Made by a program: the position numbers and the translations under genes. From Prorocentrum cordatum (lineage: Eukaryota), in NCBI GenBank assembly GCA_963575745.1, contig CAUYUJ010000114.1, positions 744,001 through 808,000 on the forward strand: 64,000 bases of DNA. The letters are read 5' to 3'. Positions 45,663 through 53,850 of the stretch are shown in pieces. Every line of letters starts with the position of its first letter. The stretch's first letter is position 1. The notes under the pieces are model-generated. The model worked only from the letters and a program-made list of their open reading frames with translations, was not told the DNA's origin and did not search any database.

Positions 45663-45699
45663 CCTGCCCCCGCGCGAGCGCACGGCGGGCCTCAGGGAT

Positions 45700-45863
45700 T
45701 CAGGAGGGGAAAAAAAACACACACAGACACAATGAATCCTCGATTCCCCAGAAAAGATGGGAAAATATGGGAAGTGGGGGGGAAGACAGAGACCCAGAGA
45801 ATATGGAAGAATATGGGGAATCCGATTATTTTTGTGTATTGATTTGTGTGTCCTTGGGCCCCT
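45700..45863 (+). mobile_element. Element family C with a perfect 8-bp TSD abutting the NDH-2 start codon; likely 5'-UTR intron
   Basis: tcagggat at 45692-45699 and 45864-45871; related copies at 46626-46785 and about 63138-63296. Confidence 0.8.
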
Positions 45864-52300: not shown

Positions 52301-53850
52301 TTTAGGGTTCCTTAGGTCAACTCCCCGACTGTAGGGGAGGGCAGCGTTCTCTAGAGAGCTTCGGTGCTCGGGCGGCGCCCCGACTTAGGGGGTGGGGCGA
52401 CCGCGGGAGTTCCGTTCTCAGTCCGTCGGGGGGCGAGCTCTTTGATCCATGGCATGGACCACGCTCCTGAGCGCGACAGCGAGCCGTTGCAGTGGGGGCG
52501 CGTGCCAAGAAACCAGTTGGATTCTGCCAGGGTGCCCTGGGTTTCTTGGATTTCGATGGGCCCCCAATCAAGATCTTGACGATTTTCGATCGACGAATTT
52601 GGGTTTTCACTGAACAAATCGCGGATTTCAGGGTTGGGTTTCTTGCGGAGGTTTCTTGTGGCCGAGCCCCCACTGTACAGTCGGGGCACTGAGGAGGGAA
52701 CCCTTTTCGTTGGGGAGGGGCTCGGTGCTCCCTAGCTGTTTTGCAGTTCGCCTTTGGTGTTGCTTAGGGTTTCGAGAGGAAGTCGAAGTTGAAACCATGG
52801 GGAAAAGAGGCCTCGTTCCTTGTTGAGGGTTCCTTAGGTCAACGCCCCTTCTGTACCGAGTACGGCGTATGGCTAAGTGTAAAGTTATTGAGTCTTTTCA
52901 TTGGCAATCGAGGTCAAACATACTGGATCGGCCCTCACAGCTGCCGAAGAGGCAGTTAAAATTCTTATCGCAGTTGCCTGCCGCACCCGTCCTGCGCACT
53001 CGCGGTCTGGCCTCGGGGGCGCGATCCCGTGGATGCGCGGCCGCAGGGGTGCGTTCTGCGCGTGGCATCCGCGGCAACGCCCCCCGCCTGCACGGGGCAG
53101 CGGCCCGGGGGCCCTGCCCGCAGGGCCGTGGACATGGATACCCCAGATTTCGTAATAAAAGGGAGGGGGTCTGGACCTTCCAAGACAAGCCATTTCAGAC
53201 CTCCCCCGTGGGAGAACCCTCCAAAACATCGTCCCCAGACCCCCCCCAGGCCCTCCAAGATAGCCTGGAAGAGACCCCCCCCGAGATGAGACCCCCCTCC
53301 CTTTGTTACGAAATCCGGAGCATGTTCTTGCCCACGACAGGTGGCGTACCAGCAGGGCAAGTACCTGGGCCGCCTCTTCCGCCTCGGCCAGCAGCACCTG
53401 ATTCCCGACCCGGAGGCGCCCAAGTTCGAGTACAACCACCAGGGGACCATGGCGTACATCGGCCAGGGCGAGGCGGCCACGGAACTCAACCCGAACGGCC
53501 TCATCAAGCTGGGGCGGTCGTCCGTCACCGACCACTTCTGGTGGCGGTCCCTCTACGGGGAGTGCGACCAGCTGCGGATCATGGGCCCCATGGGCTTCGC
53601 CATTTGGCGCTCCGTGTACTTCAGCAAGCTGGTTTCGGTGAGGTGGGGCGACGGGATCTATACATATCCACTGCCCCATGCCTGGGCCATCCTGCTCGTA
53701 GGATGGGCCTGGCCCGGGACGGCGGAGATGTATAGGTCTGGTCCCCCTGTGAGGAACCGTTGGTCCGTCGCGAGCGACTGGATGCGCACGTCGTTCTTCG
53801 GGCGGCCGGCCTGCTCGTCTGCGCAGGGCACCGCTGAGGCCTGCGCATAG
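45870..53850 (+). CDS. NDH2: Type II (alternative, rotenone-insensitive) NADH:quinone oxidoreductase, probably mitochondrial; 9 exons join(45870..46397,46902..46955,47127..47291,48487..48555,48737..48817,49945..50049,50194..50319,53341..53642,53754..53850), 508 aa
   Basis: Exons splice in frame to 1527 nt and give the NDH-2 motifs in order: KKKVVVLGSGWG (FAD Rossmann), SPRPFFFYTPLL, YDHLLIAVGAQPNTFGIPGV, FVVVGGGPTGVEF (NADH Rossmann), VTLVEA, YGLLVWVAG, VFAIGDCA, PPTAQVAYQQGKYL, FEYNHQGTMAYIG, WRSVYFSKLVSVRNR...DW...FFGR. Donors are GA,GC,GT,GC,GT,GA,GC,GT; every acceptor is AG followed by G. Basic N-terminus (MAFLRRFAKK) resembles a targeting peptide. Confidence 0.95.
46401..46897. mobile_element. 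MITE family D spanning NDH-2 intron 1
   Basis: TIR cggggtcgtccaggagggg / cccctcttggacgcccccg within 3-4 nt of both splice sites; related copies at 54101-54596 and 62730-62911. Confidence 0.78.
46626..46785 (+). mobile_element. Family C copy nested in intron 1
   Basis: tcaggagggg...gggaagtggggggaagaca...tttgtgtg...ggcccct. Confidence 0.75.
46902..46955 (+). CDS. NDH2: NDH-2 exon 2 (EIEHGRHVRKEMLDIIDK)
   Basis: ggcAG|GAG acceptor, AAG|GC donor; continues the conserved FLKE motif. Confidence 0.88.
46958..47120. mobile_element. MITE family A (8-bp TSD, hAT-like) forming the whole of NDH-2 intron 2 (introner)
   Basis: Imperfect ~29-bp TIRs ttgagtcgggcacgtccc... / ...gacatgcccaacctaa; perfect direct repeat gacaaggc at 46950-46957 and 47121-47128. 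Confidence 0.9.
47127..47291 (+). CDS. NDH2: NDH-2 exon 3 (NADH-binding VVGGGPTGVEF)
   Basis: caAG|GCG acceptor, AAG|GT donor, 55 codons. Confidence 0.92.
47320..47517. mobile_element. MITE family A copy in intron 3
   Basis: Same TIRs; TSD ggcaagtg/ggcaggtg (7/8). Confidence 0.85.
48048..48233. mobile_element. MITE family A copy in intron 3
   Basis: ttgagtcgggtctgtccctccacagg start, AT-rich body with tctggggacgaa, degenerate right TIR. Confidence 0.7.
48237..48431. mobile_element. Foldback MITE in intron 3
   Basis: caccaacacca...cctccac...tcggtg arm mirrored by caccga...gtggagg...tggtgttggtg. Confidence 0.7.
48487..48555 (+). CDS. NDH2: NDH-2 exon 4 (VTLVEALPGLLTMFHKTVGGYVQ)
   Basis: AG|GTG acceptor, CAG|GC donor; acidic residue at the strand end suggests NADH preference. 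Confidence 0.9.
48558..48733. mobile_element. MITE family E forming NDH-2 intron 4
   Basis: TIR tgacgggcctgctttccaccaccacca / tggtggtggtggaaaacatgcccatca around a (CCT)n core; direct repeat caggc/cagga. Confidence 0.82.
48737..48817 (+). CDS. NDH2: NDH-2 exon 5 (EHLANQGVDIKLSAMVKEVDEKHVSLK)
   Basis: cacAG|GAG acceptor, AAG|GT donor. Confidence 0.9.
49286..49461 (+). mobile_element. MITE family B copy in intron 5
   Basis: TA-flanked, same body. Confidence 0.88.
49774..49935. mobile_element. MITE family A copy at the 3' end of intron 5
   Basis: tcaagtcgggcctgtccct ... gggggacaggcccgtcttaa. Confidence 0.8.
49945..50049 (+). CDS. NDH2: NDH-2 exon 6 (VKDGSIQKMDYGLLVWVAGVGMRPFTRSMCEKIGK)
   Basis: tAG|GTG acceptor, AAG|GA donor; YGLLVW motif. 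Confidence 0.9.
50055..50187. mobile_element. MITE family F forming NDH-2 intron 6
   Basis: TIR ccagcctcgaacgtatccc / gggatatgttcaaggctgg; direct repeat aaggagaac; internal hairpin 50077-50117; inverted relative at 53909-54048. Confidence 0.82.
50194..50319 (+). CDS. NDH2: NDH-2 exon 7 (ENGQTDRRGLLVDECLRV...VFAIGDCA...PPTAQ)
   Basis: aAG|GAG acceptor, CAG|GC donor; GD motif. Confidence 0.92.
50489..50650. mobile_element. MITE with a perfect 17-bp TIR
   Basis: cacgtaagagtgaccct / agggtcactcttacgtg, flanked by TA/CA. Confidence 0.78.
50870..51017. mobile_element. MITE family H
   Basis: cccagggctg...aacggtgtt / aacaccgtt...cagccctggg; ttct direct repeat. Confidence 0.75.
52155..52331 (+). mobile_element. 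MITE family B copy in intron 7
   Basis: TA-flanked, same body. Confidence 0.88.
52490..52675. mobile_element. CAGTGGGGG-terminated MITE
   Basis: cagtgggggc...caagaaacc / ggtttcttg...gcccccactg|TA. Confidence 0.7.
52678..52853 (+). mobile_element. MITE family B copy in intron 7
   Basis: TA-flanked; shares its left TA with the adjacent element at 52490-52675. Confidence 0.85.
53127..53336. mobile_element. MITE at the 3' end of intron 7
   Basis: Imperfect TIR of about 45 bp (gatttcgtaataaaagggagggggtct / agacccccctccctttgttacgaaatc) ending 4 nt before exon 8. Confidence 0.75.
53341..53642 (+). CDS. NDH2: NDH-2 exon 8 (VAYQQGKYL...WRSVYFSKLVSV)
   Basis: gacAG|GTG acceptor completes the AQxAxQ quinone-site motif; AG|GT donor in phase 2. 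Confidence 0.92.
53644..53748. mobile_element. Foldback MITE family G forming NDH-2 intron 8
   Basis: Whole intron is self-complementary (ctatacatatcc / ggagatgtatag; ccatcct / aggatgg); direct repeat gtgagg at both ends. Confidence 0.78.
53754..53850 (+). CDS. NDH2: NDH-2 exon 9 (RNRWSVASDWMRTSFFGR...stop)
   Basis: gtgAG|G acceptor; restores the conserved C-terminal amphipathic membrane-anchor sequence; TAG ends at 53850. Confidence 0.88.

Follow-up and report, generated by a model that had tools for sequence, protein, structure and literature searches.

Five introns with borders at transposon ends in an NDH-2 gene of Prorocentrum cordatum

How can a single gene come to hold introns that each look as if they had been built from a different transposon? 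The question is raised by a stretch of 64,000 nucleotides (nt) of the dinoflagellate Prorocentrum cordatum (contig CAUYUJ010000114.1 of assembly GCA_963575745.1, positions 744,001 to 808,000, forward strand), hereafter the window, in which nine exons spanning 45870–53850 (+) encode a type II NADH dehydrogenase (NDH-2) of 508 amino acids (aa) that ends at a TAG stop codon. The borders of introns 2, 3, 4, 6 and 8 of this gene are transposon ends, consisting of inverted repeats together with a target-site duplication. These five introns, probably joined by intron 1, very likely stem from independent insertions of miniature inverted-repeat transposable elements (MITEs) of different families into coding exon. 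The locus is a compact case, within one gene and checked against RNA, of introns born by transposition, with five exact element-plus-duplication introns from different elements in a conserved respiratory gene.

The gene and the removal of its introns

The exons of the gene model lie on the plus strand at 45870–46397, 46902–46955, 47127–47291, 48487–48555, 48737–48817, 49945–50049, 50194–50319, 53341–53642 and 53754–53850. Pfam and structure searches, made exon by exon, identify exon 1 as Pyr_redox_2 (E = 4.5e-18) and exon 8 as NDH2_C, the NDH2 C-terminal domain (E = 2e-08). Among solved structures, exon 1 comes closest to 5jwa (E = 5.7e-25), which is a type II NADH:ubiquinone oxidoreductase, and the family of the yeast structure 4g6g is recovered as well. 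Relatives number 345 at E ≤ 1e-20, many of them with PF07992, PF00070 and PF22366, and among the named ones those nearest to exon 1 belong to Symbiodinium sp. CCMP2592 (68%) and Cladocopium goreaui (73%); many others are unnamed proteins derived from transcripts. Over its full length, the spliced model shares 481 of 508 residues with its closest database relative (P0001, 508 aa) in an alignment without a single gap column, and three further relatives align less closely: P0003 (430 identities, 4 gap columns), P0004 (393 and 2) and P0022 (362 and 30). With a Pyr_redox_2 body, an NDH2 C-terminal domain and full-length similarity to known members, the product is an NDH-2. As a side observation, residues 300–508 of P0001 are identical to the gene model and all 27 differences fall within the first 293 residues, a mosaic that would fit a paralogue, or a strain variant with gene conversion.

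A search of public sequencing runs with positions 45600–54000 returned 20 matching runs from six studies, and the share of sampled words found per run, 0.15–0.18, equals the exon share of the query (1527 of 8401 bases). Junctions were mapped on assembled contigs of four of these runs, from four studies (X1, X5, X11 and X13), with polyA RNA on record for X11 only; intron stretches lacking contig cover were not counted as evidence. In all four runs, joints skip 504, 171, 1195, 1127, 144, 3021 and 111 nt, which are introns 1, 2, 3, 5, 6, 7 and 8, and the joints can slide by 4, 8, 4, 4, 9, 4 and 6 nt, respectively, the same as the direct repeats at these borders. Contig rows at the repeat 48601–48725, the (TCC)n core of intron 4, were excluded from the junction table; this junction is supported indirectly, because the contig piece that precedes the intron-5 joint measures only 82 nt, the length of exon 5, and because the spliced model aligns to P0001 free of gaps. 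The eight junctions drawn from the sequence in a preliminary description of the locus are borne out by this RNA check: precise removal from mRNA is direct for seven introns and indirect for intron 4, and no transcript with other coding junctions was seen. All eight introns conform to AG|G[A/C/T]...AG|G, with three GT, three GC and two GA donors; seven are in phase 0, and intron 8 is in phase 2.

Intron borders, element families and insertions in the untranslated regions

Introns 2, 3, 4, 6 and 8 have lengths that equal one element plus one target-site duplication exactly. Intron 2 (46956–47126, +; GC..AG) consists of an element of the family here called MITE-A (46958–47120) and an 8-bp duplication, GACAAGGC, at 46950–46957 and 47121–47128 (163 + 8 = 171 nt). 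The two copies are identical at 8 of 8 positions, and the splice falls at GACAAG|GC. Intron 6 (50050–50193, +; GA..AG) is built in the same manner from an element at 50056–50190 and a 9-bp duplication, AAGGAGAAC, at 50047–50055 and 50191–50199 (135 + 9 = 144 nt), identical at 9 of 9 positions and spliced at AAG|GAGAAC. Intron 8 (53643–53753, +; GT..AG) joins an element at 53644–53748 to a 6-bp duplication, GTGAGG, at 53638–53643 and 53749–53754 (105 + 6 = 111 nt; 6 of 6 identical). Intron 3 (47292–48486, +; GT..AG) has an outer element at 47294–48483, with arms at 47294–47314 and 48462–48483, between the flanks AAGGT and GAGGT, which agree at 4 of 5 positions (1190 + 5 = 1195 nt). Intron 4 (48556–48736, +; GC..AG) has an element at 48558–48733 whose arms, TGAYGGGCMTGYTTTCCACC, enclose the (TCC)n core at 48615–48701, again between flanks that agree at 4 of 5 positions, CAGGC and CAGGA (176 + 5 = 181 nt). 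Since splicing takes place at AG|G within the duplication, the insertion leaves no scar in any of the five. Both splice sites lie within the duplication in introns 2, 3 and 6. In intron 8, the duplication ends with the donor G and the element begins with the donor T; in intron 4, the left copy of the duplication has C versus A in the exon.

The inverted repeats adjoining these duplications were assessed by aligning the first and last 80 nt of each intron, plus a 10-nt flank, as reverse complements, with 300 shuffles each. Terminal arms match at 29 of 37 positions in intron 1, 18 of 22 in intron 3, 46 of 58 in intron 4, 50 of 66 in intron 6 and 36 of 48 in intron 8, and for each of these five introns none of the 300 shuffles reaches the arm score (z = 18.3, 17 and 11.5 for introns 4, 6 and 8). 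The arms begin 2–4 nt from the donor and end 3–6 nt from the acceptor. The terminal arms of intron 2 are diverged (18 of 25 matches, z = 4.0), and the top match in its shuffle test is an internal 11-nt repeat; the ends of its element are fixed by homology, because element positions 1–163 (46958–47120) are homologous to another copy at 63802–63962. In predicted folds, introns 2, 4, 6 and 8 form single end-to-end hairpins (z = −4.5, −7.3, −9.9 and −6.1 against 100 dinucleotide shuffles), in which pairing begins 1–4 nt from the 5′ end and stops 3–6 nt from the 3′ end.

The remaining three introns are of other kinds. Intron 1 (46398–46901, +; GA..AG, 504 nt) has arms only, at 46401–46436 and 46861–46897, and a member of a further family, MITE-C, is nested within it at 46626–46786. 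Introns 5 (48818–49944, +; GT..AG, 1127 nt) and 7 (50320–53340, +; GC..AG, 3021 nt) have no terminal inverted repeats (153 and 270 of 300 shuffles reach their scores), nor do any appear when ends of 300 nt are used. Neither of these two introns shows transposon ends that would account for its origin, and both have later taken up MITEs. Intron 5 holds a copy of MITE-B (49284–49463) and a copy of MITE-A (~49774–49935) that stops 9 nt short of the acceptor. Intron 7 holds a relative of the intron-8 element (50372–50457), hairpin elements at 50482–50657, 50870–51017 and 53138–53323, a (GACGAC)n array at 51291–51417 and two MITE-B copies (52153–52333 and 52676–52855). The outer element of intron 3 is host to others in turn: a MITE-A copy at 47320–47519 with flanks GGCAAGTG and GGCAGGTG, a second at ~48048–48235, and palindromic elements at 47663–47868 and 48231–48437. 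A peculiarity of intron 7 is noted in passing: exon bases 50300–50315 are copied exactly as the first 16 nt of the intron (50320–50335), such that the donor is the start of the second copy of a tandem duplication with a 20-nt period (50300–50335), an arrangement that does not fit a target-site duplication.

Copies of the families were counted within the 64-kb window, where four of the six outer elements (those of introns 1, 2, 6 and 8) have relatives elsewhere. MITE-A, the intron-2 family, has eight copies, and the homology between intron 2 and 63802–63962 stops exactly at the duplication. Flanks of 8 bp are recognisable in four of the copies (8/8, 7/8, 7/8 and 6/8) and unclear in the remaining ones; AGG is absent from two of the flank pairs. 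One of the eight copies is intron 2 itself, three are nested in other introns (twice in intron 3, once in intron 5), and four lie where no gene was found. MITE-B has six copies of ~180 nt, 77–88% alike (the three in introns 5 and 7 named above, and 6993–7171, 42363–42542 and 58022–58201), whose homology is bounded by TA and whose termini read TACAGTCGGGG...CTGTA; the motif AGTCGGG, as it happens, is common to the termini of MITE-B and MITE-A. MITE-C has three copies with 5-bp flanks, at 45700–45866 (GGGAT/GGGAT, 5/5), 46626–46786 (TTTTC/TTTTC, 5/5) and ~63137–63299 (CAAAC/CAGAC, 4/5). A further full-length member of the intron-6 family lies in the 3′ untranslated region (UTR), at 53909–54048 (−); the relative of the intron-8 element in intron 7 is 73% identical over 86 nt; and the arm motif of intron 1 occurs six times in the window versus 0.12 expected, with one convergent pair at 54102–54595. 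The arm motif of intron 4 matched only its own two arms in the window. MITE-A, MITE-B and MITE-C are therefore multi-copy MITEs and the families of introns 1, 6 and 8 have at least two copies each, the outer element of intron 3 and that of intron 4 being single. Farther afield, a metagenome scan with the MITE-A arm motif gave 0 exact matches in that collection, and scans of viral contigs with the MITE-B and MITE-A motifs gave 0 and 0, results that neither hint at a viral carrier nor count against one.

Most of what the preliminary description had read from the borders holds. Introns 1, 2, 4, 6 and 8 are indeed bounded by terminal inverted repeats, as judged by the shuffle test or, for intron 2, by the copy at 63802–63962; the direct repeats of introns 2, 4, 6 and 8 are as it quoted them, and intron 1 has no clean one, sharing only AGGA. 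Scarless removal of an element with one duplication is borne out by the exact lengths and by RNA junctions at AG|G inside the duplication. Relatives bearing inverted repeats and duplications exist, as it had expected, since MITE-A copies with duplications of their own lie outside introns in the window. Three of its statements need trimming. It had the donor take whichever base followed AGG in the old exon, which is right for introns 2, 3 and 6 among the five and wrong for intron 8, where the base belongs to the element, and for intron 4, with its C against A. It had called the elements unrelated: the outer elements show no BLAST matches to one another at E ≤ 1e-4 besides nested copies, yet one intron-2 arm resembles one intron-4 arm (z = 6.6, the sole notable cross-family likeness among the 40-nt termini beyond nested copies), and MITE-A is nested in introns 3 and 5. 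Lastly, it had derived each intron from a different transposon, which is well supported for four of the five that it listed, probable for intron 1, and gains a sixth case in intron 3, but does not extend to introns 5 and 7.

Three further insertions lie in the UTRs and the 3′ flank. The MITE-C copy at 45700–45866 (+, 167 nt) sits in the 5′ UTR between GGGAT at 45695–45699 and GGGAT at 45867–45871, the right copy of which supplies the AT of the start codon. In X13 only, 164 nt are removed there, readable as a GA..AG intron at 45704–45867 (joint 45698→45863, slide 6), and the AG acceptor that is thereby cis-spliced is formed by the TTCA end of MITE-C and the flanking G. Contigs of X1, X5 and X11 begin at 45867–45869, and about 21 off-window letters at that end in X1 are likely the spliced leader; the acceptor made by MITE-C probably serves the spliced leader as well in these three runs. 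Downstream, contigs of X11 and X13 skip 53907–54052 (GA..AA, no slide), which covers the intron-6-type copy in the 3′ UTR and is read through by X5 contigs and one X11 contig. An element of the intron-1 type in the 3′ flank (54099–54610, +; arms 54102–54119 (+) and 54578–54595 (−)) sits between TCGGAG repeats at 54093–54098 and 54605–54610, and contigs of X5 and X11 go from 54098 directly to 54611, their loose-end letters being window 54611–54640. Neither of the two 3′ skips fits the G[T/C/A]..AG frame, and they may represent alleles or paralogues without the insertion, or artefacts of strong hairpins.

Origin of the introns

The proposed course of events would be as follows. Each insertion would have duplicated its target, by 8, 5, 5, 9 and 6 bp in introns 2, 3, 4, 6 and 8, and each target would have happened to hold AG|G. 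A dinoflagellate spliceosome that takes GT, GC or GA after exonic AG, and that requires AG then G at the 3′ end, would cut at the same position in both copies of the duplication, thereby removing the element with one copy and restoring the reading frame without a scar. The inverted repeats would fold the intron RNA end to end and bring its splice sites to within a few nucleotides of each other, a juxtaposition that, judging from the predicted folds, may aid splice-site recognition. We infer the order of these events, namely, that the insertion made the intron, as well as the mechanism by which each family moved and the survival in exons of AG|G insertions only.

The alternative that fares best, to which we would give somewhat less than an even chance, concerns the nature of the elements rather than the event: they would be ordinary MITEs, spliced by the accident of landing on AG|G, and not dedicated introner families spread through many genes. 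The placement of MITE-A speaks for this, as one copy in eight is an intron, three are inside other introns and four are where no gene was found, and so do the two MITE-A flank pairs without AGG and the fact that it is the target, not the element, that gives both splice sites of introns 2, 3 and 6. Yet this alternative departs from the origin by insertion favored here only in genome-wide frequency, and Roy et al. (bioRxiv 10.1101/2020.10.14.339549), in the part of that report covered, class such families as introner-like elements. Also against it stands MITE-C, which one run splices out: this element supplies a CAG|GA close to one of its ends and TTCA at the opposite one, so some families may bring part of the splice signal with them.

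Far less probable is that short introns were present of old and that MITEs landed inside them later and came to fill them. Nesting certainly occurs in this gene, as introns 3, 5 and 7 hold at least two, two and six nested elements, the acceptor of intron 5 lies 9 nt beyond the end of a MITE-A copy, and intron 1 retains 3–4 nt between its arms and splice sites, with no clean duplication. But the perfect duplications of introns 2, 6 and 8 straddle the exon–intron borders and are partly coding, and between the exons there is only element and duplication, where an older intron would have left bases of its own outside the duplication. Introns 3 and 4 likewise consist of element and duplication only, with duplications that agree at 4 of 5 positions. 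Least probable of all, and hardly credible, is that selection for stem-loops juxtaposing the splice sites produced the hairpin introns in place, without a transposon origin, and that the direct repeats merely reflect the AG|G consensus: AG|G does stand at both borders of all eight introns, including introns 5 and 7 without inverted repeats, short shared repeats are common by chance, and the elements of introns 3 and 4 are without relatives in the window, but relatives of the elements of introns 1, 2, 6 and 8 occur with the same termini at places that are not introns, MITE-A among them with flanking duplications of its own, and the perfect repeats of 8 and 9 nt reach well past AG|G.

Several points weigh against the insertion origin itself. 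The duplications of introns 3 and 4 match at only 4 of 5 positions, and a shared AG|G context of 4 nt is at chance level; in an empirical null of AG|G pairs drawn at random from the window, which is rich in repeats, at least 4, 6, 8 and 9 nt are shared with P = 0.54, 0.15, 0.068 and 0.051. The repeats alone are therefore weak, and the weight rests on the adjoining inverted-repeat ends and on the length arithmetic. The AGGA of intron 1 does not adjoin its arms. The window holds no second copy of the intron-3 outer element or of the intron-4 element, and no copy in the window, of any family, was traced to an intron of a second gene. On the transcript side, the intron-4 junction has no direct RNA row, and the runs that gave the junctions are assembled contigs, three of the four not recorded as RNA. 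Finally, the only genomic orthologue found spans the exon-1 region alone. It came from a metagenome scan with exon 1 that returned 18 loci, 12 of which are mRNA-sized contigs without introns, three (L013–L015) distant at 37–42% identity and two (L017 and L018) marginal. The sole genomic dinoflagellate orthologue among them (L016:2834–4596) covers the 5′ portion of an NDH-2 of Symbiodiniaceae type whose exons match P0022 at 80–100%; it ends before the first intron position of the NDH-2 gene, and none of the eight positions is covered. Where the gene described here keeps one unbroken exon of 528 nt, this orthologue is divided by four introns; intron positions clearly turn over between lineages.

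A broader generalization can be put forward tentatively, with a probability slightly below that of the ordinary-MITE account: in this GC-rich dinoflagellate, any palindromic MITE that lands on AG|G would become a scarless intron by way of a hairpin that brings both duplication copies together, whatever its transposase, given duplications of 5, 5, 6, 8 and 9 bp in one housekeeping gene. The families and the classes with 6 and 9 bp would be undescribed introner types, and the UTR copies (MITE-C at the start codon and those of intron-6 and intron-1 type on the 3′ side) would be variably removed or polymorphic. If this were true, a few specialised introners would not be needed for intron gain, and the UTR copies would be the process in progress.

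Related introners and the rest of the window

The comparisons that follow concern the parts of the cited reports that were covered. Introner-like DNA transposons of Polarella and Symbiodinium carry duplications of 3, 4, 5 and 8 nt, and they fall into classes in which both splice sites come from an AGGH duplication or in which the donor lies across the border between duplication and element; GA, GC and GT donors, an exonic G after the acceptor and a resulting phase-0 bias are described for them as well (Roy et al., bioRxiv 10.1101/2020.10.14.339549). The NDH-2 gene is like Polarella glacialis and Symbiodinium in the following respects. Inverted-repeat DNA transposons with duplications of several lengths per genome become introns, at least one splice site comes from the duplication (AGGH, NAGGH, or NNAGG plus the first base of the element), and GT, GC and GA donors go together with a G that follows the acceptor in the exon, and with a strong phase-0 bias. 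The seven phase-0 introns out of eight agree with what Roy et al. predict for splice sites taken from exonic AGGH. Unlike the cases of Roy et al., five or six different elements reside in one 8-kb gene, and the duplications of 6 and 9 bp fall outside the lengths given there. Roy et al. have already reported that permissive donors and AGGH duplications of several lengths yield scarless introns; novelty here may extend at most to the duplication lengths of 6 and 9 bp and to the families as sequences.

Other introners share some of these features. In Amoebophrya, introns are terminated by inverted repeats of 8–20 nt, short direct repeats span the exon–intron borders, and predicted hairpins that join the exon ends have been proposed to aid splicing, as suggested above for the NDH-2 introns (Farhat et al., 2021, PMC7789003); introners are diverse, and in this genus tens of introns were made in one gene (Gozashti et al., 2025, PMC12130899). 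The NDH-2 introns resemble those of Amoebophrya in their terminal inverted repeats, border direct repeats and predicted hairpin fold. They differ in that every coding intron here is G[T/C/A]..AG, whereas those of Amoebophrya are largely non-canonical, and in that their arms are longer (21–66 nt aligned) and their duplications reach 9 bp. In Prorocentrum cordatum itself, a GC-rich species, Dougan et al. (bioRxiv 10.1101/2022.07.25.501386) report an enrichment of introns in "introner elements" with inverted repeats, and the GC content of the window is similar, mostly 0.50–0.69; the IE+ introns of that study come from a pattern screen, and the passages covered give neither families nor duplication lengths nor a mapping of splice sites. 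The introners of Aureococcus anophagefferens and Micromonas pusilla, as described in Roy et al. and Farhat et al., are similar in being non-autonomous DNA transposons with one splice site co-opted from the duplication. In these, the element carries one splice site, the donor is a canonical GT and there are one or few families, unlike introns 2, 3 and 6 here, in which the target supplies both splice sites.

Set against this background, the NDH-2 gene illustrates the published claim that many different mobile elements drive the intron richness of dinoflagellates, with all three donor types (GT, GC and GA) represented and with both splice sites drawn from the duplicated target. Its introns give concrete families to seek genome-wide; no new question is opened by them, as the mechanism, the range of duplication lengths and the permissive donors have all been published before.

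Elsewhere in the window, ten long open reading frames (ORFs) match no Pfam family above the curated cut-off, and the two longest are of low complexity. Long open frames at 22748–24067 (−) and 33984–36152 (−) encode 440 and 723 aa with Lys/Asp/Ser or Pro/Ser/Leu repeats and no Pfam family, and may be genes or translated repeats. Two near-identical ORFs of 102 aa, at 895–1200 and 2835–3140, have a Cys/His-rich stretch and no Pfam match; they probably belong to a repeated unit. Beyond the 3′ end of the gene, a degenerate (GT)n-type microsatellite of ~2.8 kb occupies 54793–57622 (Tandem Repeats Finder, period 7, ~396 copies, 81% matches), and it is because of this array that the 54–58 kb bins show extreme GC and AT skew.

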